A DNA stretch of 51,445 nucleotides from Clostridia bacterium (GTDB lineage: Bacteria; Bacillota; Clostridia; Christensenellales; Borkfalkiaceae), in NCBI GenBank assembly GCA_017615975.1, contig JAFZYZ010000027.1, positions 1-51,445 on the forward strand, read 5' to 3'. The position numbers and the translations under genes were made by a program. Shown in pieces: positions 20,109-44,187 of this stretch; within the stretch, counting starts at the first letter, position 1, and each line of letters starts with the position of its first letter. The notes beneath the pieces are model-generated. The model had not been told where the DNA came from. It did no database searches and was given only the letters and a program-made list of their open reading frames with translations.

Positions 20109-20186
<78 letters not shown>

Positions 20187-26415: not shown

Positions 26416-29286
26416 ATGTTTTATAAGATGATAACAAAAAAGCGAGATGAATGGTTTAGCGGTGAATGTTCTGTTAAAGAATTCATTTCTTATATAGAAT
26501 CAAAAGGGCAAATGCGAGATGCACAAATTGATGCGATTAAAACGTATTTGTATTTAAAAATTGCCTGTGAAAATAAACCGTTATATCAGTTATTTTCGGG
26601 AGGATATTTTAACACGCTTGATTTAGATGTGCTTGAAATATCAAGTGCAACACGGGAAACTTTGCAAAAGGATAAATCACTGGCCGCGTTATACGAATAC
26701 GCCTTAACGTCTGACGAAGAAGGAAATATTGTTTCGGATAAAATTATAGCGGAAATCAAGAGTAATGCCGATAAAATAGATGCCAAACGAATATTTAAGG
26801 ATATTTTTTACGGCGAAACATATACCGATTTTTTGTTTAGTTTGCCTATGGGTGCAGGCAAAACATATTTAATGGCGGCTTTTATTTATATAGATTTGTA
26901 TTTTGCCAAAAACGAGCCGACAAATAAAAATTTTGCACACAATTTTATAGTTTTTGCGCCATCTGGGTTAAAATCTTCTGTCGTTCCAAGTTTAAGGACG
27001 ATACAAAATTTTGATCCGACTTGGATTTTACCAGAACCTACTGCATCAGCGATAAAACGTGAAATAAAATTTGAAATATTAGACGAAAACAAAACGGCTA
27101 ATAAATCAAATAAAGTTAAAAATCCCAATGTGCAAAAAATTGCTTTACGTCAACCTTTAAAAGATTTGTTTGGGTTTGTGGCGGTAACAAATGCAGAAAA
27201 AGTTATTTTAGATCGTGTGGAAGAAAAGAACGGTCAGATAACTATGTTTGAAGATAGCGATGACGAAAAAGATAAAAAAGCGAACGAACTTCGTAACATA
27301 ATAGGGAAAATACCATATTTATCGGTATTTATAGATGAAGTGCATCACGCAACTGACAGCGAAAGAAAACTTCGTGCAGTAGTCAATAAATGGGCAAAAA
27401 GTGATTCGTTAAATTCAATTATAGGCTTTTCGGGTACGCCCTATTTACAAGGAAGAGAAAAAGTAAAAATAACGGACAATCTGTTTGTAGCATCGCAAGA
27501 AATTTCAAATATTGTTTATTATTACCCACTTATCGACGGCATAGGTAATTTCCTTAAAAAGCCTACTGTTTACATATCCGACAGAAACGAAAGATTATAT
27601 ATTGTTGAAAAAGGAATCAGACAGTTTTTAGACGATTATAAAGATACAACTTATTCCGACGGCACTTGCGCAAAACTTGCCATTTATTGTGGCAGTATAG
27701 AAACATTAGAACAATCGGTTTATCCGCTTGTTGAAAGGCTTGTCGGTGAATATGGTCTTGAGCCAAATGAATCCATATTAAAATATCACGGCGGCAATAA
27801 ATCTTATTCTATGCCCGTAGATAGCGAATTGGAGTTTGCAAGTTTAGACAAGCCTTTTTCAAAAAAGCGTATTATATTGCTTGTTCAAATAGGTAAAGAA
27901 GGTTGGGATTGTCGATCGCTTACGGGTATTATATTGCCGCAGGAAGGTGACTGCTCTACAAATATGGTTTTGCAGACATCGTGTAGGTGTTTAAGGCAAA
28001 CAACAAAAGGAAATTTGGAAACGGCTATGATTTATTTAAATAAATCCAATGCCGATACGCTAAATAAGCAACTTGAACAGCAACATAGGATAAATTTGGA
28101 TCAATTCCAAAAGGGTGGAAACAATACACCTATTACAATAAAACGTTATGATAGAACAAAACATTTGAAACTGCCGAAAGTTGATTTTTATCAATTAAAA
28201 ATCAATTATACTACTGTTATTGTAAATGAGAAAAAGGATGCTGCTAAATTAATCGTAGAATCGACGAAAGACGCAAAAAGATCATCGGCGTTAATAACGC
28301 AAGCGGAATTTGGTCAAAAACTAGTCAATACGAATTTTGATACCGACGATAAAGAAAGCGGAACGGAAATCGCCAACTATTCCGTTTGGTTAAATTCTAT
28401 AATTAAAGAAAGTTTTAATTTCATTTCTTATAATGACTTGCTTCCTTACGCAAATGAATTAAAACAGGTTTTTGATAAAATAACCTACTTAAATGATGAT
28501 GTGCGTTATTTCAGTTCAAAATTTGATCAGGCAAAAATTAGAGCGACGATAAGAAAAGCGTTTTACGATGAGCGTTCTTTTGACACAAAAGAAGAACTAG
28601 TACCTGAAGAAGCGAGCCTTTTACACGTTGAGAATTTTACTACTGAAATTCAAACCTATAATAAAGCAGACTTTACGCCCGTTCAAGAGACGGTAGATAA
28701 AATAATTGCAGACGATAAAGGAAAATTAAAGATAGATTCTAAAATAGCGAATTATATAAAAATGCTTGAATCTATGGGCGATTATGAAACGGCTGAAAAA
28801 TGGAAGATGAATACATATTCTCACCCGATGAAAGATAAATCTTTCCATTATTTGCCATACAAAACAGATAGTAGTTTTGAAATAAAGTTTTTAGATGAAA
28901 TTTTAAAAGAAACAATCATTAAAGAAAATGATTTGGAAGTTTATTATAACGGCGACAGGGCTTTAACGGAATTTAAAATTAAATGTTATAAAAATACCGA
29001 CGGCAGATTGAGATATATCGGTATGTACACGCCCGACTTTTTGGTGATAAATAGAAAAGACGGCAAGATTTATAAAGCATTAATAATCGAGACGAAAGGT
29101 AAAATTTATGCAAACGACCCTGCATTCTTGGATAAGAAAGCCTTTATGCCAGAATTTGTGTTAAAAAACAACGAAAAATTTGAATATAACCGTTTTGATT
29201 ATTTATATTTGGAAGATTCGTTACCCGAAAGTGAGCGGATATTAAAAACCGTTGAGACAGTTAAAGACTTTTTTACGGAGAGATAA
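26416..29286 (+). CDS. SF2 helicase (Res/SNF2-like) fused to a C-terminal PD-(D/E)xK endonuclease; type-III-restriction-Res-like, 956 aa
   Basis: Q-like motif RDAQIDAI. Motif I LPMGAGKT (26842-26865). Motif II DEVH (27334-27345). Motif III GFSGTPY. Motif VI-like QTSCRCLRQ. C-terminal YTPDFLV..ALIIETKG (D874, E892-x-K894; nt 29032-29097). Confidence 0.75.
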   Translation: MFYKMITKKRDEWFSGECSVKEFISYIESKGQMRDAQIDAIKTYLYLKIACENKPLYQLFSGGYFNTLDLDVLEISSATRETLQKDKSLAALYEYALTSDEEGNIVSDKIIAEIKSNADKIDAKRIFKDIFYGETYTDFLFSLPMGAGKTYLMAAFIYIDLYFAKNEPTNKNFAHNFIVFAPSGLKSSVVPSLRTIQNFDPTWILPEPTASAIKREIKFEILDENKTANKSNKVKNPNVQKIALRQPLKDLFGFVAVTNAEKVILDRVEEKNGQITMFEDSDDEKDKKANELRNIIGKIPYLSVFIDEVHHATDSERKLRAVVNKWAKSDSLNSIIGFSGTPYLQGREKVKITDNLFVASQEISNIVYYYPLIDGIGNFLKKPTVYISDRNERLYIVEKGIRQFLDDYKDTTYSDGTCAKLAIYCGSIETLEQSVYPLVERLVGEYGLEPNESILKYHGGNKSYSMPVDSELEFASLDKPFSKKRIILLVQIGKEGWDCRSLTGIILPQEGDCSTNMVLQTSCRCLRQTTKGNLETAMIYLNKSNADTLNKQLEQQHRINLDQFQKGGNNTPITIKRYDRTKHLKLPKVDFYQLKINYTTVIVNEKKDAAKLIVESTKDAKRSSALITQAEFGQKLVNTNFDTDDKESGTEIANYSVWLNSIIKESFNFISYNDLLPYANELKQVFDKITYLNDDVRYFSSKFDQAKIRATIRKAFYDERSFDTKEELVPEEASLLHVENFTTEIQTYNKADFTPVQETVDKIIADDKGKLKIDSKIANYIKMLESMGDYETAEKWKMNTYSHPMKDKSFHYLPYKTDSSFEIKFLDEILKETIIKENDLEVYYNGDRALTEFKIKCYKNTDGRLRYIGMYTPDFLVINRKDGKIYKALIIETKGKIYANDPAFLDKKAFMPEFVLKNNEKFEYNRFDYLYLEDSLPESERILKTVETVKDFFTER

Positions 29287-29287
29287 A

Positions 29288-30112
29288 ATGGATAATTCTG
29301 ATTACAGGGTAAAATTAAAACTTGATTTTGCAGAAGAGGAAAAAGTAAAAGATTTTCTTGCAAAGGCTTATTGTGCTTTTTCTGAATCTATACAAATTGA
29401 TAATGAGATATCAAGTGAAACATTTAATAATTTTTGTTTCAGTGCAGGAGTTAAGGCAGACTTAGTTTACTATAATGAATATGTGAATTCACCATTGATT
29501 TTTAAATTTTTACAAAAGCATACAGATTCACTTGTGGATTTTATATACTACTTTTCAATACTTGTTAATTCATGTAAGTATAAAAGTGCTGAACAAAATA
29601 GTTGGATAAAGGCATTTAATTATTGGGCAAGTTTGGCTTGTTTACAGTTTGACTTTATTGAAGATGAAAAAAAGTTTTTTATATTTCCTAAAGGTGCGAA
29701 GGAGTTAGATGATAAATTGATTTCCGAGCCGTTGGAGTGGTTAAAAGATTATAAATTATCACATAAAGCATTTATTAAAGCACTAAAAGATTACTCTGAA
29801 GTAGATGAAAACACGGCAAGTCAGGTTGCCGACAATTTAAGAAAAGCGTTAGAAACTTTCTTTCAAGAATTTTTTGAGACAAGTCAGTCTTTGGAAAACT
29901 GTAAGAGCCTTTATGGTAAATTTATGAAAGATAAAGGGATTTCGACCGATATTTCTAATAACTTTGAAACTCTTTTGCAATTATATACGAACTACAATAA
30001 CAATAACGCAAAGCATCATGACAAGGCAGAAATAAAGGCGTTAGAATATATTTTATATCAAACAGGCGCAATTATAAGACTATTGATTACTTTAAAACAG
30101 GAGAACAAATAA
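29288..30112 (+). CDS. 274-aa predicted all-helical protein of unknown function, translationally coupled between the helicase-nuclease and the methyltransferase
   Basis: ATG 29288 lies 1 nt after the upstream stop and has a GGAGAG SD. Its stop lies 1 nt before the next ATG. I recognise no catalytic motif. Confidence 0.7.
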   Translation: MDNSDYRVKLKLDFAEEEKVKDFLAKAYCAFSESIQIDNEISSETFNNFCFSAGVKADLVYYNEYVNSPLIFKFLQKHTDSLVDFIYYFSILVNSCKYKSAEQNSWIKAFNYWASLACLQFDFIEDEKKFFIFPKGAKELDDKLISEPLEWLKDYKLSHKAFIKALKDYSEVDENTASQVADNLRKALETFFQEFFETSQSLENCKSLYGKFMKDKGISTDISNNFETLLQLYTNYNNNNAKHHDKAEIKALEYILYQTGAIIRLLITLKQENK

Positions 30113-30113
30113 A

Positions 30114-31964
30114 ATGGCTATTAAGTATATACCATTCTTTCCAGAACCTATCGAAGGACAAGCATTGCTTGATAATTTTAAAAGAACTTTAAGATATAAA
30201 GGCGCGGGCGAAGTGCAAGATAAACTTCGTCGTGGTATGCCGCTTTACGAAATGGAAAAAGTAGAATCGGTACTCGGCGGTAGCGATGAAAATCTTGTTA
30301 TTCACGGCGAATGTGTTTCCGCTTGTGCTTATTTTAAAGATAAAGGCATAAAAGTTGACCTTGTTTACATAGATCCGCCGTTTGCAAGCGGAGCAGATTA
30401 TGCTAAAAAGATTTATATTCGTAAAAATCCGAAAGTTGCCGAATTGATTGACAAAGCCGAACAGGAACTCGATAACGACGACTTAAAAGAGTTTGAAGAT
30501 AAAATGTACGGCGATGTTTGGGATAAAGAAAAATATCTTAATTGGATGTACGAAAATTTAATGGCAATAAAATCCGTTATGAGCGAAACGGCGTCCATTT
30601 ATGTCCATTTGGATTGGCATATCGGACATTATGTGAAAATTTTAATGGATGAAATTTTTGGTGAAGATAATTTTAGAAATGAGTTAATATGGAAATATTT
30701 TGGACCAACGAGTGGCAAGAATAATTATCCACGAAAACATGATGTTATTTATTTCTATGTAAAGAATATTGAAAAATATTATTTTGATTTTAATGCGTGT
30801 TTAGTAGATTATGACGAAAAAGCAATAAAAAGATATGATAAAATCGATGAGGATGGTAGAAGATATAAATTATATAACGAAAAAGATGGGACAGTACGAA
30901 AAGCCTATATGAATGAAGGAACGCCTACTGAAGTTTTTGAGATTCCTGGGATTCAAAATCCAGACTATGCAACACAAAAACCCGATGAACTTGTGTCTCG
31001 TTTAATAAGGGCGTCGTCAAACGAAAATATGATTGTTGCGGACTTTTTCAGCGGTAGCGGCGTTACATCGGCAGTTGCAAGTAAATTGAACAGAAAATTT
31101 ATAGCAGGCGACGTAAACTTAAATTCTATACAAACGACAAGGGATAGGCTTGTTTCTATAGGTGCAAAGTTTGATTTGTTGGAAATAAAAGACGGCGTTT
31201 CTTTATATCGCAACCCCGTGCAAACTATGGATAAAATAAAGTCGCTTATTACGGGGCTTAAAAACGAAGATTCGCTTGACGAGTTTTGGGAAGGCGCAAT
31301 TTCTGACAGCAAGTTGGGGCTAATTCCCGTTTACGTTCCTAATTTAATGGATAGTACTACTAAGCTTTTAGACGAAGTATTGATGAATCGTATTTTGCAC
31401 GAAGCAATACCTGAACTTGATAGTTCCGTTAAAAAAGTTATCGTTTATTACGTTGATATTACGGATAAAGCGGAAATAGAAAAGTTTATTAAAGACGACG
31501 ACAGTACTATGGTAGAAATCGAACTACGGGATTTAAAAGAAATTTTAGACGACGTTGTTGTTGATGATCATATTGAATTTACTGTCGAAGAAAATAAAGA
31601 CGATTTATTGGGCGGATATATTATTTCCGTAGATAAATTTATTAGCGACAGGGTAAGCGGAAAGATATTAGAATTTAACCAAAAATCGCTTGCAAATTCA
31701 AGCGAGAAAAAGCCGTATAAACCTATTACTATAAGTGAAGACGGTTTAGAGATGATAGAATTTATTTCGCTTGATTGCACGGCAGACAGCGGTGAATGGC
31801 ATTCCGATAGCGAGATAAAAGTAGAAGGCAAAACGAGTTATGTAACTATAAACGGCAAAAAGACAAAAGAGTTTTGGGACGGCACTATCAAGTGCGAGAA
31901 AAAGCCTTTACGCTTAAAAGTCCGTAACATCTGCGGCGACGAAAGCGTAGTTATTGTAGAATAG
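30114..31964 (+). CDS. beta-class N6-adenine/N4-cytosine DNA methyltransferase (PF01555-like), 616 aa, with a ~270-aa C-terminal extension
   Basis: Motif IV DPPF (30372-30383) comes first, then HLDWHIGHYVKILMDEIFGEDNFRNELIW. ATQKPDELVSRLI and motif I ADFFSGSGVT (31041-31061) come later, which is the beta permutation. Residues ~345-616 have no recognisable motif. Confidence 0.85.
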   Translation: MAIKYIPFFPEPIEGQALLDNFKRTLRYKGAGEVQDKLRRGMPLYEMEKVESVLGGSDENLVIHGECVSACAYFKDKGIKVDLVYIDPPFASGADYAKKIYIRKNPKVAELIDKAEQELDNDDLKEFEDKMYGDVWDKEKYLNWMYENLMAIKSVMSETASIYVHLDWHIGHYVKILMDEIFGEDNFRNELIWKYFGPTSGKNNYPRKHDVIYFYVKNIEKYYFDFNACLVDYDEKAIKRYDKIDEDGRRYKLYNEKDGTVRKAYMNEGTPTEVFEIPGIQNPDYATQKPDELVSRLIRASSNENMIVADFFSGSGVTSAVASKLNRKFIAGDVNLNSIQTTRDRLVSIGAKFDLLEIKDGVSLYRNPVQTMDKIKSLITGLKNEDSLDEFWEGAISDSKLGLIPVYVPNLMDSTTKLLDEVLMNRILHEAIPELDSSVKKVIVYYVDITDKAEIEKFIKDDDSTMVEIELRDLKEILDDVVVDDHIEFTVEENKDDLLGGYIISVDKFISDRVSGKILEFNQKSLANSSEKKPYKPITISEDGLEMIEFISLDCTADSGEWHSDSEIKVEGKTSYVTINGKKTKEFWDGTIKCEKKPLRLKVRNICGDESVVIVE

Positions 31965-32036
31965 TTTCAGTTGTTCTAATTAGAAAAGGATGTAATAAAA
32001 AGATAATTACTACGAAATATTTGGAGATATTAACGA

Positions 32037-35000
32037 ATGTATCAAGCGATAAAGCGGTATTGCGAGAATGATAAACAAAATGGTCTTTTCCTTTTGGATA
32101 TGCCAACGGGATTTGGAAAGACTTATAATGTTATTAAGTACATTTATGATGCTTCTATAAATGAGGCTAATAAGGATAAAAAATATTTTTTTATTACTAC
32201 TTTAAAAAAGAACCTTCCGACAGTTGAATTAGAACAGTGGTTTAAAGAAAACGGTAAAGCTGATCAATTTAAAGAAAAGTTTTTGTTTATTGACTCCAAT
32301 GTAGATTGTGCGATCGAACATTTAACGGAAAAAGTTAAAGATTTAATTCCTAATGACATTAAAAAAACAGATGAATACAAAGAATTTGAAAAAGGTATTA
32401 GATTTCTCCAATCACAAGATACAGACACGAAACTGAAGGCTTTTGTTAGTAGTATTCAGGACACATTAAGAACAAAGACAGAACCCGCTTTTAGAAGACT
32501 GCTACAGACTATGTTAGCAAAAGAGTATCCATCAGTAGATAAAAGGTTGTACGCAATTAAAACCGAAAAACGATGGCAATGGCTTGGCGAATTATACCCT
32601 GCAGTTTTTACGAAGGATCGTCAAATAATTTTTATGAGCGTGGAAAAATTTTTGTCTCGTAATTCAACTATTGTTGAAACTTCTTATGTGTTTTATAATT
32701 CGAGTATTATTGAAAATGCAGTTATTTTTATAGATGAATTTGACGCAACAAAGGAGACGATTCTTAATAATATTATACAAAATGGTTTGCGTGACAGAAT
32801 AGATTATGTTGATTTATTCCTTTCTATATACGGTCCATTGCAAACCGCTTCTTTTCCAGCAGCATTAACAATACCATCGAAGAAAAGAAAAGCAAGCGAT
32901 TATGCAAATCAATCGCTTCAAGCTGTAATTGATGGGATAAAAGAGAAAGCGGAAATAATTTATGATACATACTCTCTTCAATTTAATCACCGCACAAATG
33001 TAGATGAAAATAATTCACGTAATTTTTTGTTTCAAGATCATCAGTTTCATTCTGTGCTAAACGGCAACAATAAATATGTCACAACAACGAGTATCAAAAC
33101 TGATCGTATAAATGCCATAAAGTTTACTGAAGAAAGACCAGAACTGGAATCAAACAATATTCAAATATTGCTGGGTAAACTAAGAGGTTTTATTTCGTGG
33201 TTTCTTGGCGGGGTAAATATTCTTGCAATTAACTATATGCAACGAAAGTTGGAGGAAAAGAGAGATGGAGATGAAGATTTTACCTTTGAATATGCAATTC
33301 GCTCGGTCTTATCACTTTTCCGTTTAAATCAGATATATATAGACTTTTTAACATCACAAATTCTTATTTCAAGCCATAAGGCAAAAGGTGATATTCAAAG
33401 TTCAGAATTTGATAAAACATTTTATGAGAACGGGTTCAGGTATTATGCTTTTGAAGATGATGCTGGACACGATATGCAATCTCGTATGATGATGTGTTCT
33501 TTTCAAAATACACCAGAAAAGATTTTATTAAGATTTTGTGAGAAAGCGAAAGTAATCGGTATTTCTGCAACAGCAACTATAGATACCGTTGTTGGCAATT
33601 TTGATCTCGATTATCTCAAAGCAAAAATGCAATCTTCTTACGTTGAAATGTCAGATGAAGATTATAATCGTTTGAGTCGCAATTTTGAGGAGACTCAGTG
33701 CGGATATAATCAAGTCAATATTCATACGGAACTTCTTGGTGATACTGACTACAATTCATATGGGATCAAGTCGTGGCAGCGTGTTTTTGATGACAGAGAA
33801 ATTGCTGAAGAAGCATATAATATTGTCCAACGAAAACGTAGTGATAACGAAAATAATTATAATTCAGAGCGTTATCTTAGAATAACAGAAGCATATAAGC
33901 AGTTCTTGTGCCATGCGGATATTAAATCGTTTCTTTGTGTTCTAACTAAACATCCACAATTTAAAGATAGTACTCTTGATTTGAATACAATTTATGATCT
34001 TTTTGAATTAACAGCAAAAGTGTTTCAACCTGGCTTTGATGCACGCAAATCGGTAGTGAAACTTGATGGGGATGAATTTGATCAAAAGAAGAATGATGTA
34101 ACACGAAGGTTAGAAAGAGGTGAAAAACTCTTTGTAATTTCAGTATACCAGACGATTGGTGCCGGGCAAAATCTCCAATATAAAGCACCTGCGACAATAA
34201 TAAAATCGCTTATAAAGGTCAATGACCGTGATAGTGGCGAAAAGGATTACGATGCTATTTATCTTGACAAACCAACAAATCTTTTAGTGAATTTTATTCA
34301 AGGACAGTCAGTCGAAGAAGATCAGTTTGCAAAAGCGTTATTTCAATACGAATTTTTACAAGAAAATGCGGAAATATCGATTGATGAAAGTGTTAAATCT
34401 ATTAAAAACGCATTTCGTGCATTCATGAGTAATGGGTCAGCAAAAGGAGAATATGTTTCCAATCAGCGTGATTGTAAAAGCATTAGAATGTTGGCAACTC
34501 GGTATATTATTCAGGCAATAGGAAGGATTTGTAGGACAAATTTAAAGCAAAAGGATATATATGTTTTTGCAGACAGTCGAATAGCAGAAAGTTTAGATGT
34601 CAGTGTTGTTGAAAAAAGAATTGTTAATCGTGAGTTTTCCGCGTTATTGGGTCGAATTTCACAGGTTCATTACAAATCACCAGAGGAGCGTTCGCTTGAA
34701 GCAAAAGCGGCTTTAACTTCAATTCGGGTAAACAAAGATATACGCAACATGATAGAAGAAGATTGGAACGATAAGAGTATAGAGAAATGGCAAGTACTTC
34801 GTGATCTCGTTTTAAGATATCCAACGCTATCGCACGAAGAAGTGTCTCGTAATTTTGTGGCATATAATTATTATGTAGAGATGCCTAAAAAGGCAAATCG
34901 TATTTATTACAATCAAGAAGAAGATTTTAATAAGATATCGGTTGGTTTTGTAAAGGCTTCGGAATATAAGTATACTTTATCGGCGGAAGGGGCTAAGCTT

Positions 35001-35519
35001 ATTCAATTAATGTCGTTTCCTGATATTAAACAGTATTTTAAATCTGCTGGATATGCTACCGAATTTGCCGAAAATGACTTTATTATGTCCCCACCACTTT
35101 GGAATAACATATACAAGGGAGCTTTGGGGGAAGTTGTGGGAAGGTATTTGTTTAACAAGATTCTGTCTGTCAAATTGGATGACATTACCGATCCTGAAAT
35201 ATTTGAGCTTTTTGACTTTAAGGTGAGATCATCTTCTGTATTTTTAGACTTTAAGGACTGGCAAGAATCAACTGATTCTAACTGGGACAAGCAGATAAGA
35301 AAGATTACAGAAAAAGCAAACAAATGCGGCTGTAAATGTGCCATTATTGCTAACATATTGACGGCGAATAGCAGATACAGTGTTAGGGAAAGCACTGAAA
35401 ACGGTGTCCATATATTAATTGTGCCTGCACTGCTTTTAGAGTCTACTCATGATGTTTACACGGATGCATGGAAAAAAATTAAGGAGTGCATTGAGAAATA
35501 TGGCGATTCAGACCAATAA
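32037..35519 (+). CDS. Rad3/DinG-like SF2 helicase with a C-terminal PD-(D/E)xK-like nuclease segment, 1160 aa (DdmD-like architecture)
   Basis: Motif I PTGFGKT (32103-32123). Motif II FIDEFDAT (32727-32750). GISATAT and YQTIGAGQNL. Motif VI QAIGRICR (34512-34535). C-terminal ELFDF..VFLDFKDW (D1060, D1071-x-K1073; nt ~35202-35255). The helicase call is solid; the nuclease and DdmD-like calls are inference. Confidence 0.6.
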   Translation: MYQAIKRYCENDKQNGLFLLDMPTGFGKTYNVIKYIYDASINEANKDKKYFFITTLKKNLPTVELEQWFKENGKADQFKEKFLFIDSNVDCAIEHLTEKVKDLIPNDIKKTDEYKEFEKGIRFLQSQDTDTKLKAFVSSIQDTLRTKTEPAFRRLLQTMLAKEYPSVDKRLYAIKTEKRWQWLGELYPAVFTKDRQIIFMSVEKFLSRNSTIVETSYVFYNSSIIENAVIFIDEFDATKETILNNIIQNGLRDRIDYVDLFLSIYGPLQTASFPAALTIPSKKRKASDYANQSLQAVIDGIKEKAEIIYDTYSLQFNHRTNVDENNSRNFLFQDHQFHSVLNGNNKYVTTTSIKTDRINAIKFTEERPELESNNIQILLGKLRGFISWFLGGVNILAINYMQRKLEEKRDGDEDFTFEYAIRSVLSLFRLNQIYIDFLTSQILISSHKAKGDIQSSEFDKTFYENGFRYYAFEDDAGHDMQSRMMMCSFQNTPEKILLRFCEKAKVIGISATATIDTVVGNFDLDYLKAKMQSSYVEMSDEDYNRLSRNFEETQCGYNQVNIHTELLGDTDYNSYGIKSWQRVFDDREIAEEAYNIVQRKRSDNENNYNSERYLRITEAYKQFLCHADIKSFLCVLTKHPQFKDSTLDLNTIYDLFELTAKVFQPGFDARKSVVKLDGDEFDQKKNDVTRRLERGEKLFVISVYQTIGAGQNLQYKAPATIIKSLIKVNDRDSGEKDYDAIYLDKPTNLLVNFIQGQSVEEDQFAKALFQYEFLQENAEISIDESVKSIKNAFRAFMSNGSAKGEYVSNQRDCKSIRMLATRYIIQAIGRICRTNLKQKDIYVFADSRIAESLDVSVVEKRIVNREFSALLGRISQVHYKSPEERSLEAKAALTSIRVNKDIRNMIEEDWNDKSIEKWQVLRDLVLRYPTLSHEEVSRNFVAYNYYVEMPKKANRIYYNQEEDFNKISVGFVKASEYKYTLSAEGAKLIQLMSFPDIKQYFKSAGYATEFAENDFIMSPPLWNNIYKGALGEVVGRYLFNKILSVKLDDITDPEIFELFDFKVRSSSVFLDFKDWQESTDSNWDKQIRKITEKANKCGCKCAIIANILTANSRYSVRESTENGVHILIVPALLLESTHDVYTDAWKKIKECIEKYGDSDQ

Positions 35520-37317
35520 AATCGAAGCTGAAATAAATTACGTAGCACTTGATAATAAATATGATTTTTTTGTTTTAACAACTACAGAGAAATACATTAA
35601 AGGCGGAGCAATGATATTAGATGCGCCGTCATCAATACTTCGTGTACAAGCAATACATTTTACCAACGGAAAATGTTTTTTCGTTATGGTGTTTAAATCT
35701 GCAGATAATAAAAACAAATTAAAGGAATTAATACAATCATATAGCGAAGGTAGATATTTAACTATCAATCAATTAAACAGTAGCGATCTTGAAGAAAAAG
35801 ATTTGCTCCAGTTACTTATCAATGGATTGTCTAATTCACGCAATCCATTACTTGGGTTTAGCAATTTAACAGGACATTTATATTGTTTCCATCCATCATG
35901 GCTTAAACATAAAAGGACAGGGTCTCAAGAAGAAATAGTTAAAGTGCCCTGCATTGAATTTCATGTAGTAGACGAAAATAAATTATTGATAGATGTAAGG
36001 ACTTTCAGTTCAGTAAAACTTAGGAATAAGATCACCTTTCGCAAAAAGAAATTTGAAGAATATCCTAAGTATAGTTTCGCAACAAATAATACATTAAAGC
36101 GAATAACTGAATCGTGCGACGATGCGAGTTATATTTTAAGGCAAACAGATGGTGCAAAGACAGAAATACCGTTTTTGGACATTCTAAATACCGAAAAATT
36201 TATGCAAAGCAAAATGGGTGTTTTATCTGCCGTAATTGAGCAATTCAATAAGGTATATGTGGGGGAGGCGTCTATTAAATTTAGTAGCATAGACGAGTAT
36301 AAACGAATAGACCATAAGAAAAAAGCAGAGGAAGAAAATAAATCGAGAGTTGTTTCCATTTTAAAACAGAACAAAATACGAATTGTTGATCAAATAGGGA
36401 ATGGGTATTCAGAAGAGTTCTGTAAAACAATGTCGAGATTATTGGAAAGAAAATATGGAATTAAACCCTCTTTAGGGACCCGCTTATCAAAAAATGGACT
36501 TAATATAGTTTTAATACACAATGCAGCCTATTATATTGATGTGGAAGATCCGCATGATGTTGTTAAGTCAAATTATGCTATTCAACATGTTACATTAGAA
36601 GATTTTTCTAATAGTGCTGAATTTGCGATTGCTACTGTTGTTAATGAGTTAATTATTAAAGATGATTTGAGATCTGGAAAAATATCATTATTTGATTGGA
36701 AACGACTTTCATTTCAAGGTGATTTTATATTCGGGACTGAGGTTGTTGAAAACGAAATAAAAAAATATTTGTTTATGCGTATTCATCCAGATGGCTCTTT
36801 TGTAATACATAAATGTGAATTTGATTTATTTTCTGCAAATGAATATATGAAATATGCAAAAATATATGAAGATGCTAAAGTTGCTTCTGAAACGGTTCGA
36901 GGCATAATAAGCGATGATAAAGGAAATATAAATATTATTAAAGATACGGATTGGTTTACAATTCCAAATATTAACTGTATTAAATCTGAGTTAGAGAAAG
37001 GTAATACAAAGATTCGGGGCAAAGAGGCAAGAATGCGTTTTCTCGATGCAATATTAGATATAAAATGGTTTCAAAACGGGGAAGATGTTTTCTATTTTGC
37101 AAATGACATTGGGGACGGAATGCGCACATTAGTGCAACGTGCTGCGAATATAAGAAAAATAGTTGCACATGAGAACTCGGAATTGTTTTTTGATAAAATC
37201 TCCCCATTGTTTGATGTGACTTTTGTCCGCAATGGTCAGTTAACAGTTGTTCCGTTCCCGTTCAAGTATTTACGAGAAGATTTTGATTATATGAAAAAAG
37301 TTAATGAAGATGACTAA
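35500..37317 (+). CDS. 605-aa protein with a MID-PIWI-like C-terminal half, predicted catalytically inactive (pAgo-like / DdmE- or PIWI-RE-like candidate)
   Basis: ATG 35500 overlaps the upstream gene by 20 nt, with AAGGAG 13 nt upstream. NIVLIHNAAYYIDVEDPHDVVKSNYAIQHVTLEDF fits the MID-type K..Q pattern. FIFGTEVV sits at the GxDV position, IISDDKG at the RDG position, and VVPFPFKYLRE matches PxPxxYA[HD]. The CDS is well supported; the fold assignment is by eye only. Confidence 0.45.
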   Translation: MAIQTNKIEAEINYVALDNKYDFFVLTTTEKYIKGGAMILDAPSSILRVQAIHFTNGKCFFVMVFKSADNKNKLKELIQSYSEGRYLTINQLNSSDLEEKDLLQLLINGLSNSRNPLLGFSNLTGHLYCFHPSWLKHKRTGSQEEIVKVPCIEFHVVDENKLLIDVRTFSSVKLRNKITFRKKKFEEYPKYSFATNNTLKRITESCDDASYILRQTDGAKTEIPFLDILNTEKFMQSKMGVLSAVIEQFNKVYVGEASIKFSSIDEYKRIDHKKKAEEENKSRVVSILKQNKIRIVDQIGNGYSEEFCKTMSRLLERKYGIKPSLGTRLSKNGLNIVLIHNAAYYIDVEDPHDVVKSNYAIQHVTLEDFSNSAEFAIATVVNELIIKDDLRSGKISLFDWKRLSFQGDFIFGTEVVENEIKKYLFMRIHPDGSFVIHKCEFDLFSANEYMKYAKIYEDAKVASETVRGIISDDKGNINIIKDTDWFTIPNINCIKSELEKGNTKIRGKEARMRFLDAILDIKWFQNGEDVFYFANDIGDGMRTLVQRAANIRKIVAHENSELFFDKISPLFDVTFVRNGQLTVVPFPFKYLREDFDYMKKVNEDD

Positions 37318-37436
37318 TGATTTTGTAATCACTAATGGTAAATGAACTTTCCATACTAAACAAGTATTTAGGCGAGAGTAGTTTAAGGGATACTACTAGA
37401 ATTATGTTTTTATAGAGAAATGTTTGGAAATACACT

Positions 37437-38954
37437 ATGGATATTTTAGAAAAAATAAGTGAATTATATGGGAAAATTTATAAATACAATTCTTTACTTT
37501 TAAAAAAATCAGAAGATTTATTGTTAGAAAATAAGTACGATTTTGATGATATATTTGATTTTTATATAACTTCACATGCTTTAGGATATTTGAAAAATCT
37601 TTATTTCGGGAATATACAAAGTGCAGGGTTTTATCTTAATATCAGATGTATTATAGAAGGACTTGCTATAAAACAGTTAAACGCTCAAGGTAAGATAAGC
37701 ATTGAGATGAAACAACTACTGCAAAAGCAAGTTTTTTTAATAGAATATAAGAACTATTTTCAATTCAGTGATATATCTGATAAAATTTTATTACCAGAAA
37801 AATTACAATATGATTATGATAAAGCTGTCGAATATTATAAGGAAATACTACACAATCGATTTGATAATAAGACGATATTAGAAATATGCAAATCGAAAAT
37901 CCCATTTTTATGCAATCCAAAGATTAGTTTTCATAAAATAATTGAAAACACTTTAGGCGAAAAAGCAACTTCCATATATGGGATATATAGTTCAATGATA
38001 CATTCGTCGAATAATATTCCTTATACAATGGAAGAGCTTAATAATTTTGCTATCGCCATATTCCCATATATCGTTGAAAACTTTGATGTATTACCGAGTG
38101 GCACTTCGCTAAAGGATGAACTATATTTGTTAGCGTCTCAAATAGGGAATTCATTAACCCAGTGTTTTACGGATATAGGCGATATACTAATAAATGTTGC
38201 AAATGTTTTTGAAAAAAAATTTAATAATAATTATGTCACAAATACTTTTAGAAAATTATCATATGTTCTGTCAGATTTTGCAATAGAAAAAAACATTGGT
38301 TTAACAGAACAAATAAAAAGTAAGTGGAAAATCCTTTTAGAACATTTTGCCGTCTTTAATTTTCAATATTTTAATGCTAAACATGACGAAAATATATATA
38401 AATTAATGGACAAGCATAGAATACTTCAAGAAAAAAGGAATCTATCAATAAAATTTGTTTTAGATGACGAATATGAACTTTACTGTAAAATTTATTCAAC
38501 TAATCACTGTGAAAAGGCCACATTTGATAAAGCATTTTTACAGCCTCTAGGTTATCTAATTAACGAGAAAGGGATTGTGCCTAAAATCGTAGATTTAATA
38601 AAAGATTTTTCAAAACTTTTTGGGGCTGATAAGTTAGGGGAAATAACTGCCGGAAAATCTATGATTTTAGATTACGTTGAAAGTCAAATGATATCTCATG
38701 CTAACGGATATATGTGGTTTGCAAATAATGGCGCTTGGGGAGATGTAAACAGCGTTCTAATCAATACTTTGTTAAGCATAAAGTTGATTCTAGAAAAAAT
38801 GCAAGCTGTTTTTAAGGTTCATAGAGAAATAGAAGGGACAAAAGAATATAAAACAATAATAAATCTCTTAAGGAATAGTCTAAAAAAGCTGGATGTTAAT
38901 TTGAAAAATTTGCTTGAAATATTAAGTTTGCCAATGATTAAAAAGCCTTATTAG
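37437..38954 (+). CDS. 505-aa predicted all-helical protein of unknown function
   Basis: Long ORF in the same orientation as its neighbours, very AT-rich. Two internally similar halves each carry an R/K-x-hydrophobic..E segment and a later S-x-I/M-x-H motif (IYSSMIHSSNN; ESQMISHANGYMW). I can assign no family. Confidence 0.6.
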   Translation: MDILEKISELYGKIYKYNSLLLKKSEDLLLENKYDFDDIFDFYITSHALGYLKNLYFGNIQSAGFYLNIRCIIEGLAIKQLNAQGKISIEMKQLLQKQVFLIEYKNYFQFSDISDKILLPEKLQYDYDKAVEYYKEILHNRFDNKTILEICKSKIPFLCNPKISFHKIIENTLGEKATSIYGIYSSMIHSSNNIPYTMEELNNFAIAIFPYIVENFDVLPSGTSLKDELYLLASQIGNSLTQCFTDIGDILINVANVFEKKFNNNYVTNTFRKLSYVLSDFAIEKNIGLTEQIKSKWKILLEHFAVFNFQYFNAKHDENIYKLMDKHRILQEKRNLSIKFVLDDEYELYCKIYSTNHCEKATFDKAFLQPLGYLINEKGIVPKIVDLIKDFSKLFGADKLGEITAGKSMILDYVESQMISHANGYMWFANNGAWGDVNSVLINTLLSIKLILEKMQAVFKVHREIEGTKEYKTIINLLRNSLKKLDVNLKNLLEILSLPMIKKPY

Positions 38955-38992
38955 ATTTTTGATAATGTTTATAATAAATAAAGGATATCCAA

Positions 38993-41900
38993 ATGAAAAT
39001 AATTAAAAGTACGCAATTGAAGAAATGGTTTTATTATAATAGCAGAAAAACTCAGTCTATTTTTCCAGAATTAATACGAAAATTAATTCGTATGTCAATC
39101 AATAGAACTTCAAATATTCATTTACCATCAGGGGATTCTATATATACTACAGGATGGGATGCTATTGTCAAACATAATGAAGTAAAGCATGAGTTTGTGC
39201 CACTAGGATCATCCTTTTGGGAATTGGGGACAAATAACAATAGTGTAGCAAAAATAGAGGCTGATTATAAGAAAAGAAAAGCTCAATCTACTATTTACGA
39301 CAAATCTCAATATACATATGTTGCAGTAACATCAAGAATTTTAGACTCTGGGAAAAAGGAGGAAATATGCGAACAAATAAAGAAAGATAAAAATTTTAAA
39401 GATGCAATAATTATTGATGCAAATGATCTAGAATGTTGGCTGGAAGGCCATATTGATATTACAATTTGGCTGTTAAACAAATACGAAGAAAGTATTAAAG
39501 ATTATGAAATTAATACTGTCGAAAATATTTGGCAAGAGATATCGCAATCAACAAATCCAAAACTAACTGAAACAATTTTTACGACAGGAAATCAAGCGCA
39601 GGCTACTCGGTTTATTGATGACATTACAAATAATCTTGTAACAGGGAACAATTATTATGCGGTTTGTTCTCCTTTTTATGGGCAAGAGCATGCTTTATTT
39701 TTTGCTGTGGCAAGTATTATAAGTTCAAATAATGAAGCACTTATTGAAAGGAGTATTGTCGTAGAAAGTCAAGCTGGATTAGATATAATAAATGCATTTT
39801 GCGAAGATAAAATAATAATATTAAATTTTAATTGTTTCGATAAAAGATTAAGCAAAAACACAACAAACAAGTATATTTTTCTAGAAAATATAACGGCGGG
39901 AATTCAATTAGAATTAGTTTCACAGCAAGATTTTACAAAAGCTATAGAAACATTGGGATATTCAGCAGGCGAGGCATATAGGATTTCATATACAGTAGAA
40001 AATAATGCGGTTGCATTAAGAAGGTTGTTGGCACAAGTGCCAACATTAAAAAAACCACGGTGGGCAAGAGAGAAGAATAAAAATGACTTAATACCGTTAA
40101 TGATTTTGGGTGAAATAAATATGAATAAATTATCCGATATTGAGATGTTAAAAGCAATAGTTGGCGATAATTATGATCAGTATTTAGAAACCTTAAATTT
40201 TTGGACGGAAATCGGGTATGCACCTTTATATAAATATGAAGATGTTTATAGAATTTGTAGCAAAAAAGAATGTTTTGAAAATATTCAAGTTGATCACTTT
40301 TCAGTAAAAATCAAAAAAATAGAAGACAAGATAAAAGAATTGTTTTGCAATAAAGACATAGATAATAATCTATTTAATGAGAGAACTATAAGAAATATAA
40401 TAGAAGCGTTCATTATCATGGCGCAACAATCAGAAAGGAATCAACTTCATTTTGATTTTTACGTTGAAGAAATATTTAAAAATGTTAGTGGCAACGAAGT
40501 GCTTTATGAAAGAATAAAAACATTTTTGTCTCTTTTAGCAGAATTATCACCTCAAAAATTTATTAAATATATTGAAGGTGAAATTGCAAACGATAATCCT
40601 GTTTTTAATGCTTTGGTAAATAAAGAAAGTAGTGTTAATAGCTGCGATTTTGTAAACTATATATCTTATGGATTAGATAGATCTTTAAGGTTAAAGGAAA
40701 CCGTTGTAAAATCATTAAAAGTGTTGTTGCAACTATATTATCATGTCAATGAAAATCTGCTTCTATTAGAAAGAATTCAGGAAAGTTTTTCTCCAATTAC
40801 GGTTGGACTATTTCCCATTTCTTTACATAGAAAAACCGAACTTTTATTTAATTATATTAAAGATCAAGATTCGAATAAAACAAAAAAGATAATGGAAGGC
40901 TTATCATCTGGCGGTAAGCTGAATATGATGATTGCAAGCGCACGGTCTTATCGGCAATTTGATGAACAAGAAAAAATTCATTATACCTATCAAGACTATT
41001 TTGACCTGCAAAGCCAGGCGATAAAATGGTTAATTAATAATTCATCTCAGTCAGATTTAGCAAGTTTATTAGAGAAAGCTTTAAATAATATATATTATCG
41101 TCCAAAAAATTTGTTGTGTGAAGATTTAGAACAAATAAAACAAAAATGTTTAACTGACAACGTAAGCGATGAAGTAAAGGCTGAATTAAATGTTAAAGTT
41201 TTGTCAAAAATTGAGGATTTAAAAAAGTTTGATAGAAAGTATAAAAACGATTATTTGCCAATATTGCAAGAGTTTTTAGATGCTATTGCCCCAACAGATA
41301 CCTATATTAGTTATAGATATATGTTCACGCAAGATAATTTCCCATTAGCTAATCCCATAAAATTTGAAAGTAATGCAAATTGGTATGAACGGGACAATGA
41401 AAGTAGAGAAATATTACGCAAAAATGCCATTGAAGTTTTATTGAAAGAATATGGTGAAAATATTTTAGAAAGAATTATTAATGATGCCACAAAAAAATCA
41501 TATAGTATTTGGAAACTTCTCTTTTGTTATTCTAAAGACAAGGAAAAAGATATTATACAAATGATAAAACTTAAAGAACAGGTTGGGCTTTCTTTTTATT
41601 TATCTAGAATAGAAAATGCTGTTTTAGTTAAATATATAGACATCGCCGAAAATGAAGAGGATGCATTCATTTTTTCTTGTTTGCCATTTAATATCCAAAC
41701 TATTAATTTTGTAAGTGGTAAAACTAATGAAAAATTATATTGGGAAGGAAGGAGATTATATTTTAATGATGAATTATCTTTTGAGCAAGTATTCGATAAA
41801 ATGTTGAAGTTTTATCCAACAGGATTATTGGATTATTTTGCTTATAGGAGAGATTATTCATACGAGGAAGGAATTTTATTATTAAACGCATTGGCAACAT

Positions 41901-42655
41901 ATTTACAAGAAGAGAATAACGAAATAAGAAGACTGGATTTCTATTCACTAAAAGAAATAATAAAGAAAATGGACAATAAGTATTATACTAAAGAATTGTC
42001 CAAATGTGAATTTGACTTATTAGAGTATATATTAACGGATTTGGAAGATTATCCTTTAGGAATTAAAAAATATTTTTGGGATAATCCAAAGGAATTAGGA
42101 GGATTGCTGTCTGAATTGTATAATAAAAGAGATAAATTACAACAAGGAAGTTTAGGTGCTAAAATTTTTTTTGAAGCACACATATCACTAGGGGAAAAAT
42201 CATTTATTCCTAAAGAGTATATGTTGCAATATAAGGAAAAGCTTTATAGTTGGGCAATGGAGATAATTAATGTAAACTCTATAGATAATAAAAATTTAAA
42301 AATATTTTTGAAATTAGCTGTAATAAATACTTTAGCCAAATGCCCTAAAGAAATTAATGCTAAAATTTGGCCGATAAAAGAAGTAGCGGATATTTTAGAG
42401 GAATTGTCAAAAGAAGATTTTGATTCACCCGAAAGAGTCTCAAGCAATTTCTACTGTTCTTTTTTTAATACGAGAGGTATGAGAACAATAGGAAATGGAG
42501 AAGAGGAGTTTGTGTTAAATGAAGAGTATTTAGCATATAAAGACTACTATGATGTTTCCCATCCTGTGGTTGCCACAGCACTGGGATATATAGCAAATGG
42601 ATATAAGGAAGAAGGGGAAATGGACAAACGGTGGTATTTATTTGGGGAATATTAA
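38993..42655 (+). CDS. 1220-aa protein of unknown function; the N-terminal ~150 aa may be a restriction-endonuclease-like domain, the remainder looks helical-repeat-like
   Basis: AAAGGA SD 7 nt upstream. N-terminal FPELIRKLI..TTGWDAIV..GSSFWELGTNNNSVAKIEADYKKRK..YVAVTSR..IIDANDLECWLE (nt ~39125-39277), with D56/E77/K86 as candidate D..E..K residues. No P-loop is seen anywhere. Confidence 0.6.
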   Translation: MKIIKSTQLKKWFYYNSRKTQSIFPELIRKLIRMSINRTSNIHLPSGDSIYTTGWDAIVKHNEVKHEFVPLGSSFWELGTNNNSVAKIEADYKKRKAQSTIYDKSQYTYVAVTSRILDSGKKEEICEQIKKDKNFKDAIIIDANDLECWLEGHIDITIWLLNKYEESIKDYEINTVENIWQEISQSTNPKLTETIFTTGNQAQATRFIDDITNNLVTGNNYYAVCSPFYGQEHALFFAVASIISSNNEALIERSIVVESQAGLDIINAFCEDKIIILNFNCFDKRLSKNTTNKYIFLENITAGIQLELVSQQDFTKAIETLGYSAGEAYRISYTVENNAVALRRLLAQVPTLKKPRWAREKNKNDLIPLMILGEINMNKLSDIEMLKAIVGDNYDQYLETLNFWTEIGYAPLYKYEDVYRICSKKECFENIQVDHFSVKIKKIEDKIKELFCNKDIDNNLFNERTIRNIIEAFIIMAQQSERNQLHFDFYVEEIFKNVSGNEVLYERIKTFLSLLAELSPQKFIKYIEGEIANDNPVFNALVNKESSVNSCDFVNYISYGLDRSLRLKETVVKSLKVLLQLYYHVNENLLLLERIQESFSPITVGLFPISLHRKTELLFNYIKDQDSNKTKKIMEGLSSGGKLNMMIASARSYRQFDEQEKIHYTYQDYFDLQSQAIKWLINNSSQSDLASLLEKALNNIYYRPKNLLCEDLEQIKQKCLTDNVSDEVKAELNVKVLSKIEDLKKFDRKYKNDYLPILQEFLDAIAPTDTYISYRYMFTQDNFPLANPIKFESNANWYERDNESREILRKNAIEVLLKEYGENILERIINDATKKSYSIWKLLFCYSKDKEKDIIQMIKLKEQVGLSFYLSRIENAVLVKYIDIAENEEDAFIFSCLPFNIQTINFVSGKTNEKLYWEGRRLYFNDELSFEQVFDKMLKFYPTGLLDYFAYRRDYSYEEGILLLNALATYLQEENNEIRRLDFYSLKEIIKKMDNKYYTKELSKCEFDLLEYILTDLEDYPLGIKKYFWDNPKELGGLLSELYNKRDKLQQGSLGAKIFFEAHISLGEKSFIPKEYMLQYKEKLYSWAMEIINVNSIDNKNLKIFLKLAVINTLAKCPKEINAKIWPIKEVADILEELSKEDFDSPERVSSNFYCSFFNTRGMRTIGNGEEEFVLNEEYLAYKDYYDVSHPVVATALGYIANGYKEEGEMDKRWYLFGEY

Positions 42656-42684
42656 TGTAATAAAACATTAATTGGAAAATCATT

Positions 42685-42714
42685 AAAGTCGGTAGATAAC
42701 TATCGACTTTTTTA
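42685..42714 (+). terminator. rho-independent terminator ending the seven-gene block
   Basis: Stem aaagtcggtag / ctatcgacttt (one G-T pair) with loop ataa, followed by a T-run. Confidence 0.75.
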
Positions 42715-43076
42715 ATTTATTCCAGGCTAGATATAAGCGATTATCATACAGTAAACTGTAAAACTAATTTGATACAATAAAGAAAACAAATAAATATTAT
42801 AAACATTTTATTAAAAGCACTTGATTTTTTTGAAAAATTGTTTTAGAATATAATTGCATTTGGAAGAATGCGAGATTAGGTCGGCAGCGAAATGCTGGTT
42901 GTAAAATGACGGGATCTACTTTGCAGGGATGCAAGTTCCGCAGAGAAGATCAACTCAATTTATAATTAATATTTGACTGATTTGACCTTAGCGTACGAGC
43001 CCGTAGTGGGCTTATTATGTAGAGGTCTATTTTTATTTCTTCCTGTGCAAAAAATATTTTACAGGAGGATTTTTTT

Positions 43077-44132
43077 ATGGCAATCGATATTGAAAATATC
43101 GAACACACAATAGGTTATACTTTTGAAAATAAGGATCTATTGAAACAGGCGTTCGTCAGAAGGAGTTATTCAGAAGAATATGGCGGGCAGAACAATGAGG
43201 TATTGGAGTTTATCGGAGATAAAGCACTGGACCTTGCAGTTGTCAGATTGATGATGTTGCGGTTTGGTGAAATTACCGAAGATAAGGAATTGAGCGAGTT
43301 TAAGTTAACTAGTCCTAAGTATTTTAAGACAAAGCTCGGCGAGGGAAAATTTACCGACATAAAGAAACTGCTCGTTCAGAAAAAAACGTTATCAAAATGC
43401 ATTGATAGATTAGGATTTCATAAGCAATTGATAATGGGAAAAGGTGATATAGAACAAGGCGTAGAAAACCAAGATTCAGTAAAAGAAGACTTGTTTGAGG
43501 CAATAATAGGAGCGATTGCTCTGGATTGCGATTTTAATATGAGACAAATTAGTTATGTGGTTGACGCCATGCTTGATGTCTTGGCTTTTTTTAAAAATGA
43601 GGATTTTAATGCTAATTATGATGGCAACTATGTGTCGTGGCTACAAGAGTGGACACAATCGCAAGGGTATGGTTTACCAAATTATACGTATACCTTAAAT
43701 ACTGATGATAATTCATTTACTTGTCGTTTAACAATAACGGGGAAAGATGGTTTTAGACATTTTGAATTGGGTGATGGGTTTAGTCATGCAAAAGCAAGAG
43801 CTGTAGTTGCATATAAAACATTTATATACTTACGCGAACAAGGTATAATAAAAAATAGATTTGAAGATGCAGTTGGTAAACCGTATTTTGAAGAATCTAT
43901 CCGACAATTGAATGAATTATATCAAAAGAGATTAATAGCGAAGCCTGAATATTCTTTTAATGAAGAACATGATGAAAACGGTGATTCAATTTGGTTTTGT
44001 ACTTTAACAGTCGAAGGGTTTGAAAAGAAAGTAGAAGAAGGCTCTAATTCAAAAAAAGACGCTCAAAGGTTTGCTGCATATAATTTTCTTTGCTACATCA
44101 TGGGAATAGAGGAAGAATTAAAGGGAAATTAA
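43077..44132 (+). CDS. RNase III-family nuclease with two C-terminal dsRBD-like domains, 351 aa (accessory paralogue)
   Basis: Signature EVLEFIGD (43197-43220) and second catalytic motif EDLFEAIIGAIALD (from 43485), so all four acidic catalytic positions are present. Two alpha-beta3-alpha-like segments follow, ending in HAKARAVVAYKTFIYL and KKDAQRFAAYNFLCYI. AGGAGG SD. Confidence 0.75.
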   Translation: MAIDIENIEHTIGYTFENKDLLKQAFVRRSYSEEYGGQNNEVLEFIGDKALDLAVVRLMMLRFGEITEDKELSEFKLTSPKYFKTKLGEGKFTDIKKLLVQKKTLSKCIDRLGFHKQLIMGKGDIEQGVENQDSVKEDLFEAIIGAIALDCDFNMRQISYVVDAMLDVLAFFKNEDFNANYDGNYVSWLQEWTQSQGYGLPNYTYTLNTDDNSFTCRLTITGKDGFRHFELGDGFSHAKARAVVAYKTFIYLREQGIIKNRFEDAVGKPYFEESIRQLNELYQKRLIAKPEYSFNEEHDENGDSIWFCTLTVEGFEKKVEEGSNSKKDAQRFAAYNFLCYIMGIEEELKGN

Positions 44133-44187
44133 TAAATTATAATAAAAACAATGCTATCATAATGGAAAGTATTGACCTAGTCATAAA

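Follow-up and report, generated by a model that had tools for sequence, protein, structure and literature searches.

Few defence systems are dedicated to plasmids, and DdmDE is one of them; it was earlier found in Vibrionaceae and Lactobacillaceae (10.1101/2024.10.09.617351). The L. casei DdmDE pair (9IX4, 9IW3, 9IXM; Huang et al. 2024) was solved by cryo-EM (10.1101/2024.10.09.617351) and is, among the solved systems, nearest to both proteins described here, while Zorya, a type I restriction-modification (R-M) system and TgvAB share a defence region of ~25 kb with the Vibrio cholerae pair (VPI-2; Jaskolska 2022; Loeff, Bravo, Yang 2024) (PMC12409362). The present analysis concerns the window, i.e. 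the whole stretch of 51,445 nucleotides of contig JAFZYZ010000027.1 (GenBank assembly GCA_017615975.1), which belongs to an uncultured Clostridia bacterium. At positions 32037-37317, within a chromosomal defence island, a gene for a helicase-nuclease is followed by one for an Argonaute-like protein, and the two very probably form an intact operon of the DdmDE family, as judged from sequence comparison and structural modelling.

The 1160-aa product of the first gene aligns with the solved L. casei DdmD (LcDdmD, 9ix4_A) over residues 5-1113 (E 2.7e-64), and matches also the V. cholerae protein (VcDdmD, 8u0u_A; E 4e-41) and the PADLOC DdmD model (E 1.3e-43); on these alignments it can be described as a full-length DdmD homologue. 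Taken alone, the last 260 residues find the LcDdmD (1.8e-17) and VcDdmD (3.2e-11) nuclease domains, and the PD-(D/E)xK fold of the C-terminus is predicted by homology to these solved domains. The LcDdmD nuclease motif (ELFDF...IDFKNW) is the same motif as in the window protein. The nuclease residues E1032, E1057, D1060, D1071 and K1073 align with VcDdmD E1059, E1082, D1085, D1100 and K1102, respectively, and alanine mutants of these abolish plasmid elimination in V. cholerae (10.1101/2024.05.10.593530). Conservation was assessed in alignments of 68 full-length DdmD-like and 77 DdmE-like proteins, taken from related loci. Among the 20 helicase and nuclease motif residues checked, 18 are invariant in all DdmD homologues, and the other two (T29 and T512) are either T or S. 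The helicase and nuclease motifs quoted in the first-pass annotation of this DNA are all present at the positions it gave, and the C-terminal PD-(D/E)xK core that it proposed is borne out, both by the match of the 260-residue segment and by the five retained catalytic residues, D1071 and K1073 included.

The second open reading frame (ORF; 35449-37317, + strand) encodes 622 aa and contains an internal ATG at 35500 that gives a 605-aa product. In view of the position of the ribosome-binding site (RBS), of homologues that are 597-607 aa in length and of how the gene is called in related contigs, the start at 35449 was rejected in favour of 35500. No Pfam or NCBIfam model detects the 605-aa protein. 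As a single sequence it matches PADLOC DdmE (6.1e-9), L. casei DdmE (LcDdmE, 4.2e-15) and V. cholerae DdmE (VcDdmE, 1.7e-8), and a profile of 51 homologues lifts the LcDdmE match to 4.9e-39 in a search of the Protein Data Bank (PDB). The LcDdmE C-terminal motif GQxTVVPxPxKYLRE is found also in the window protein. The AlphaFold2 (AF2) model, built on the alignment of the 51 homologues, has a pLDDT of 85.2 and a pTM of 0.82. In a Foldseek search of the PDB with this model the best matches are LcDdmE chains (9ixm_B and 9iw3_A; E 2.5e-31, TM 0.69-0.71), VcDdmE is matched with E 2.6e-27 and TM 0.66, and the top six chains are all DdmE (TM 0.55-0.71), followed by human Ago2, Ago1, T. thermophilus Ago (TtAgo), A. 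fulgidus Piwi (AfPiwi) and SPARDA. The model thus has a long-Argonaute fold, with N, L1, reduced PAZ, L2, MID and PIWI parts, that is closest to DdmE.

The guide 5' nucleotide and the Mg2+ ion are held in VcDdmE by six residues (Y363, K405, Q376, E401, K674 and E678), the equivalents of which in the window protein are, in the same order, H352, K387, Q362, E383, K589 and E593 (family-profile alignment). Like the five nuclease residues of DdmD, these six map one-to-one between the window and V. cholerae. Position 352 is occupied by H in 55 of the 77 DdmE relatives and by Y in the other 22; E383 is retained in 69 of them, and Q362, K387, K589 and E593 are invariant. In the PIWI region the acidic columns conserved at a level of at least 90% are D520 and E593 alone, and no DEDX tetrad is present. 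A residual slicer site, with E414 (in 'FGxEV'), D472 (in 'IIxD') and R592 as the candidates, was rejected, these positions being variable or non-acidic across the family; for E414 and D472, acidic in the window protein itself, the LcDdmE counterparts are K and S (low-confidence alignment). The tetrad positions were mapped by motif analogy and not by structural superposition. Because the residues of the guide pocket are conserved whereas the candidate tetrad positions are variable or non-acidic, the 605-aa protein is predicted to be an Argonaute that binds a guide but does not cleave, in line with published accounts of DdmE; VcDdmE is likewise a catalytically dead PIWI protein.

The ddmE start codon lies thirteen nucleotides after the AAGGAG sequence, and the gene shares its first 20 nucleotides with the end of ddmD, in agreement with the overlap reported earlier (ddmE start at 35500, end of the ddmD stop at 35519). 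Overlaps of 17-20 nucleotides are called also in seven related loci (L001 and L005-L010), and the overlap suggests translational coupling of the two genes. The neighbourhoods were compared in ten metagenome loci and in a scan of one genome per species (80 loci). A co-oriented ddmD gene immediately precedes ddmE in 10/10 metagenome loci, and the same arrangement is seen in all genome loci whose ddmE is full length and that have enough sequence upstream. Homology, fold, conservation of the functional residues and gene linkage are all in keeping with the architecture that the first-pass annotation had read from this DNA, i.e. a helicase-nuclease followed by an inactive Argonaute-like protein; its assignment of a MID-PIWI region to the second protein is confirmed by the Argonaute fold with LcDdmE and VcDdmE as the top structural matches, and the description of this protein as catalytically inactive agrees with the lack of any conserved acidic constellation in the PIWI core.

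By analogy with the V. cholerae and L. casei systems, from which the DNA guides, the plasmid targets, the autoinhibition of DdmD and the handover step are transferred, the pair would act in the following way (10.1101/2024.05.10.593530, 10.1101/2024.10.09.617351, PMC12409362). The DdmE-like Argonaute would load short 5'-phosphorylated single-stranded DNA guides, with the 5' end seated in the MID pocket (H352, Q362, E383, K387, K589 and E593, with Mg2+), and the guide would pair with complementary DNA of an invading replicon. Since the slicer site is absent, DdmE itself would not cut the target; instead, the displaced non-target strand would be passed to the DdmD-like protein. The autoinhibited DdmD dimer would then open, the SF2 helicase would translocate 5'->3' on ATP (K28 and DEFD 233-236), and the PD-(D/E)xK domain (E1032, E1057, D1060, D1071 and K1073) would nick or degrade the DNA, leading to plasmid elimination. 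In type I CRISPR the Cascade-Cas3 machinery likewise uses a guide-bearing sensor that opens the target DNA and brings a helicase-nuclease to the displaced strand, an analogy drawn in the L. casei paper (10.1101/2024.10.09.617351). The proteins of the two systems are unrelated, however, and DdmDE has no CRISPR array, its guides coming presumably from DNA degradation products.

Several observations weigh against a direct transfer of this scheme to the window. The window DdmE is just 16-17% identical to its solved counterparts (~17% to LcDdmE, 16% to VcDdmE), V. cholerae being the more distant of the two on the search values given above and a Gammaproteobacterium, whereas L. casei shares with the window the order of ddmD before ddmE and a Bacillota host. 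The stacking residue in the MID pocket is His (H352) and not Tyr (Y339 in LcDdmE). The elements for DdmD dimerisation and autoinhibition are poorly conserved even between L. casei and V. cholerae (10.1101/2024.10.09.617351). The class of the target (plasmid, phage or integrative and conjugative element) and the type of guide are, for this clade, taken purely by analogy, and there is no intrinsic terminator between the pair and its neighbours. The largest difference is found at the site of the PIWI insertion domain (INS), which by published account is conserved in long-C pAgos and docks DdmD. In LcDdmE the INS comprises residues 510-616 (107 aa), and in both solved complexes the main interface is made up of contacts between the INS and the HD2 domain of DdmD (10.1101/2024.10.09.617351). 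Between equivalent anchors (P489 to Y532 in the window protein) there are 43 residues, as compared to 110 in VcDdmE and ~128 in LcDdmE (anchor-to-anchor count), i.e. ~67 and ~85 fewer, respectively, and the shortfall in the overall length of DdmE (605 aa here, 687 in V. cholerae, 715 in L. casei) is located at this site. The short form is not peculiar to the window, as 42-44 residues are present at the INS site in 65 of the 77 family members, and a long insert is kept in 9 (Enterococcus, Kordia, Lactimicrobium and others). The length of the INS thus varies inside one homologous family, and the full-size domain is absent from the window sequence. Since the main DdmD-binding surface of both complexes is mostly missing, the docking interface probably differs from those solved, and the recruitment step may not transfer directly from them.

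The relatives of the window DdmE are numerous. In a HMMER search with the DdmE-like profile over 1.84 billion cluster representatives, 1147 clusters (50% identity) were found at E<=1e-3 and 457 at E<=1e-30, and the 80 species-genome loci belong to Clostridia, Erysipelotrichaceae, Enterococcus, Bacteroidales, Flavobacteriia, Fibrobacter, Treponema and Proteobacteria. All named members of the family are labelled 'hypothetical protein' and are covered by no Pfam or NCBIfam model. Among sequenced plasmids the family was found in 1 of 72,556 records (a Nostoc megaplasmid), and it is absent from phage genomes. The Firmicute context pointed out in the first-pass annotation is not new, the solved L. 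casei system being from the Bacillota (10.1101/2024.10.09.617351); what is new is a large unannotated DdmDE clade and a DdmE without most of the PIWI insertion domain.

Two further features of the family were observed. The commonest relatives (L005-L010; ~49% identity, 224 blocks of the contig collection) carry DdmDE as the sole cargo of a small element with the order TnpV - DdmD - DdmE - NikA-like - relaxase - 89 aa - large serine recombinase, and the same element was recorded for seven other loci (L003, L024, L028, L029, L031, L042 and L062). These elements resemble mobilisable transposons of the Tn4451 type and are found at different chromosomal sites. In addition, DdmE diverges more than DdmD in 51 of 64 loci (L001-L093), e.g. 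the identities of DdmD and DdmE are 95 and 74% in L002, and 80 and ~63-64% in L003, which hints at diversifying pressure or module shuffling acting on the sensor.

The alternative that survives best retains both protein families and modifies their action: DdmD would be docked via another surface, and the system would perhaps be tuned to conjugative elements or phages of anaerobic gut and rumen communities rather than to small plasmids. This possibility, which we consider tentative, draws on the reduced INS and the role of INS-HD2 contacts in the solved complexes, on the faster divergence of DdmE, on the sub-lineage carried by Tn4451-like elements, and on the near absence of the family from plasmids and its absence from phages. 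Against it, the catalytic and guide-binding residues and the operon layout are conserved, so that the core logic probably stands, and the L. casei and V. cholerae interfaces already differ without a change of mechanism. In an equally tentative formulation, the pair could represent a large, undescribed 'mini-INS' branch of DdmDE, dominant in anaerobic Clostridia, Bacteroidales and Fibrobacter of the gut and rumen, that recruits DdmD via an interface unlike those of both solved complexes and travels in some lineages as the sole cargo of Tn4451-like mobilisable transposons.

A dependence of the pair on its neighbours is very improbable. The island, ~18 kb in length (~26.4-44.1 kb), has a GC content of 0.28-0.35 as compared to 0.44-0.47 in the flanks; no convincing att-like direct repeats bounding it were found in a search, and the promoter scan was uninformative (90 sites vs 96.8 expected). 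The genes next to the pair are those named in the first-pass annotation, with a methyltransferase upstream and two unannotatable ORFs (505 and 1220 aa) downstream (Table 1). A co-transcribed, integrated system of 26.4-42.7 kb, comprising helicase, PDC-S32, methyltransferase, DdmDE and the two large ORFans, could be proposed, in which the function would depend on the neighbours, for example through methylation-dependent discrimination of self and non-self. The seven genes all run in the same direction, with short gaps between them, the + strand has no intrinsic-terminator-like site before 42685-42710, and the closest relative (L001, DdmE 97% identical) keeps the block from ddmD and ddmE through the 505-aa, 1220-aa and RNase III genes to IS21. 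In the same locus, however, the upstream genes are different (type I R-M, protein kinase, a 271-aa protein and an AAA_15 ATPase), and the DNA homology (blastn) begins at 31984, i.e. 20 nt past the methyltransferase stop (31964) and 53 nt before ddmD. In L002 (DdmE 74%) the shared stretch is 32015-42713 and starts 22 nt before ddmD, in L003 (DdmE ~63-64%) it covers exactly the pair (32046-37288) with other genes downstream, and in L004 (DdmE 53%) the neighbours are different again. The 505- and 1220-aa genes accompany DdmDE in the two closest metagenome relatives only (L001 and L002). The 80 species-representative loci are devoid of the Res-like, 286-aa, Mod, 505-aa and 1220-aa genes, members of the 1220-aa family are found apart from DdmDE in Clostridia and Hydrogenovibrio, and many relatives carry the pair, and no other cargo, on a small mobilisable element. 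The seven-gene system was rejected on the basis of this neighbourhood comparison and the independent occurrence of the 1220-aa family. By comparative genomics the pair is a self-contained two-gene operon within the defence island, and its neighbours are unlinked. Read-through transcription across the island is possible, as no terminator is found on the + strand before 42685, and such read-through is typical of tightly packed defence islands. The embedding, which the first-pass annotation took as a departure from the described arrangement, is not one, since VcDdmDE is also located in a defence island beside R-M systems (PMC12409362).

It is very unlikely that the locus belongs to a different Argonaute-helicase system, such as PIWI-RE, ApsAB or the long-B pAgo-nuclease systems of abortive infection, all of which have an Argonaute-like sensor together with a helicase and/or a nuclease. 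In the PIWI-RE three-gene systems (Burroughs, Iyer, Aravind 2013) a PIWI-family protein reportedly goes together with a helicase of the DinG type and a nuclease with a restriction fold, and the conserved R-E pair near their C-terminus has a counterpart in R592-E593 of the window DdmE. Membership in PIWI-RE, which had been put forward as an option, was rejected, as none of 51 DdmE family members matches the Pfam Piwi or pPIWI_RE models, even at E<=10, and as helicase and nuclease are fused here in one polypeptide of a two-gene unit instead of being encoded by separate genes. The ApsAB system (anti-plasmid, E. coli ST38) also consists of a helicase-PD-(D/E)xK fusion and an Argonaute-like partner, and ApsA and DdmD are assigned to one broad family of helicase-nucleases with such partners (PMC11096173). 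ApsB, however, is reported to have no PIWI RNase H fold, a Y-K-QG-K motif in MID, and no similarity to DdmE (PMC11096173), whereas the window model matches PIWI-containing Argonautes and DdmE (ApsB being compared by its published description); ApsA is also larger, the numbered nuclease residue K1435 implying >1,435 aa vs 1160 here, and the best sequence and structure matches of both window proteins are DdmD and DdmE specifically. No more probable is a decaying, non-functional remnant, because, although truncated pieces of ddmE that lack a ddmD partner are found in some genomes (L079, L084, L091 and L094), both window ORFs are full length relative to their homologues, and the functional residues, the RBS and the overlap are intact.

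Table 1. Features of the defence island and of the ddmD-ddmE pair in the window (positions count from the first nucleotide of the window).
Feature	Position	Strand	Description
956-aa ORF	26416-29286	+	island gene
286-aa ORF	29252-30112	+	island gene
616-aa ORF	30114-31964	+	N6/N4 methyltransferase, upstream of ddmD
Leader	31984-32036	+	short conserved leader with the ddmD RBS; left boundary of the mobile module (blastn start of homology)
ddmD-like gene	32037-35519	+	1160 aa; SF2 (DinG-like) helicase fused to a C-terminal PD-(D/E)xK nuclease (predicted)
DdmD Walker A / helicase motif I	32103-32123	+	PTGFGKT, residues 23-29 (K28); G25, G27 and K28 invariant in 68/68
DdmD FIDEFDAT			residues 231-238 (DEFD 233-236)
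DdmD GISATAT			residues 508-514
DdmD YQTIGAGQNL			residues 704-713
DdmD QAIGRICR			residues 826-833
DdmD nuclease catalytic core	35130-35255	+	E1032, E1057, D1060, D1071, K1073; invariant in 68/68 homologues
DdmD ELFDF			residues 1057-1061
DdmD FLDFKDW			residues 1069-1075 (D1071, K1073)
Gene junction	35481-35519	+	AAGGAG RBS 35481-35486; ddmE ATG 35500; ddmD stop ends 35519
ddmE-like gene	35500-37317	+	605 aa; predicted catalytically inactive long (DdmE-type, 'long-C') Argonaute
DdmE MID pocket	36553-36660	+	guide 5' end; H352, Q362, E383, K387 vs VcDdmE Y363, Q376, E401, K405
DdmE reduced INS site	36967-37092	+	residues ~490-531
DdmE C-terminal motif	37264-37278	+	K589...E593 of PFPFKYLRE, predicted Mg2+/5'-phosphate coordination; invariant in 77/77
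505-aa ORF	37437-38954	+	downstream of ddmE
1220-aa ORF	38993-42655	+	downstream of the 505-aa ORF
RNase III gene	43077-44132	+	351 aa; RNase III with double-stranded RNA-binding domain (dsRBD)
IS21 istA/istB	44264-46806		after the RNase III gene

The genes upstream of the pair form an atypical type III-like R-M trio (26416-31964, + strand). The 956-aa protein is a Res-like SF2 helicase (ResIII, 9.5e-7; no match in the PDB), the 286-aa protein matches the PADLOC candidate PDC-S32 (9e-24), and the methyltransferase is closest to EcoP15I Mod (8e-15). In the near-identical L001 island the trio is exchanged for the type I R-M, kinase and AAA_15 ATPase genes.

Downstream, the 505-aa protein is all-helical, with no significant match in Pfam, NCBIfam, PADLOC or the PDB and a marginal PHROG match only (phrog_10437, E 0.0029). 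Of the fetched loci, only the two closest relatives (L001, 96%; L002, 89%) have its gene, in both cases beside that for the 1220-aa protein, and no similarity was found between its product and the helix-turn-helix (HTH) protein that precedes a 1220-aa homologue. The 1220-aa protein has a small family of its own, with 33 matches of 992-1292 aa (nearly all 1206-1292) that range from Clostridia to Hydrogenovibrio, and it matches phrog_18693 (6e-30). In this family an N-terminal domain with the invariant residues D56, E77, K87, D91 and R95 precedes a long helical-repeat region. With the AF2 model (pLDDT 87) as query, Avs4 is the best Foldseek match (E 7e-6), together with Avs5 and SAMD9, with TM values of only ~0.2; the modelled structure thus resembles the Avs4-type STAND defence proteins only loosely. 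Elsewhere the homologues occur without DdmDE, after an HTH_3 protein in 2 of the 3 contexts examined, and the gene is a candidate stand-alone defence gene.

The right part of the island consists of an extra copy of RNase III with a dsRBD, scoring below the NCBIfam RNase III cut-off, and an IS21-family element. The RNase III cassette (42685-44221) is flanked by two similar terminator hairpins (42685-42710 and 44185-44215), and an indel between them is suggested for L002, because this locus lacks exactly 42714-44221. The IS21-family element (istA, 523 aa, with rve and Mu-transposase C domains; istB, 244 aa) marks the right edge of the island and is common to L001; two tandem 41-nt repeats are present at 46725-46806. 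Outside the island, a tRNA gene with a CAT anticodon (20109-20186) and tilS (18616-19908, - strand) are divergently oriented, with ~200 nt between the tRNA and the tilS 5' end; the tRNA may be a TilS-modified tRNA-Ile2 rather than tRNA-Met.

In general, the finding leaves the concept of how such systems work unchanged, and adds a third, very divergent DdmDE lineage to those of the Vibrionaceae and Lactobacillaceae. The naturally short INS offers a way to test which of the DdmD-DdmE contacts are required. If the assignment of DdmDE as cargo of Tn4451-like elements is true, the pair would be there a weapon of one mobile element against rival replicons. Carriers of the lineage, mostly anaerobic bacteria from gut and rumen, belong to at least five phyla, which bears on the plasmid ecology and the genetic tractability of these organisms.

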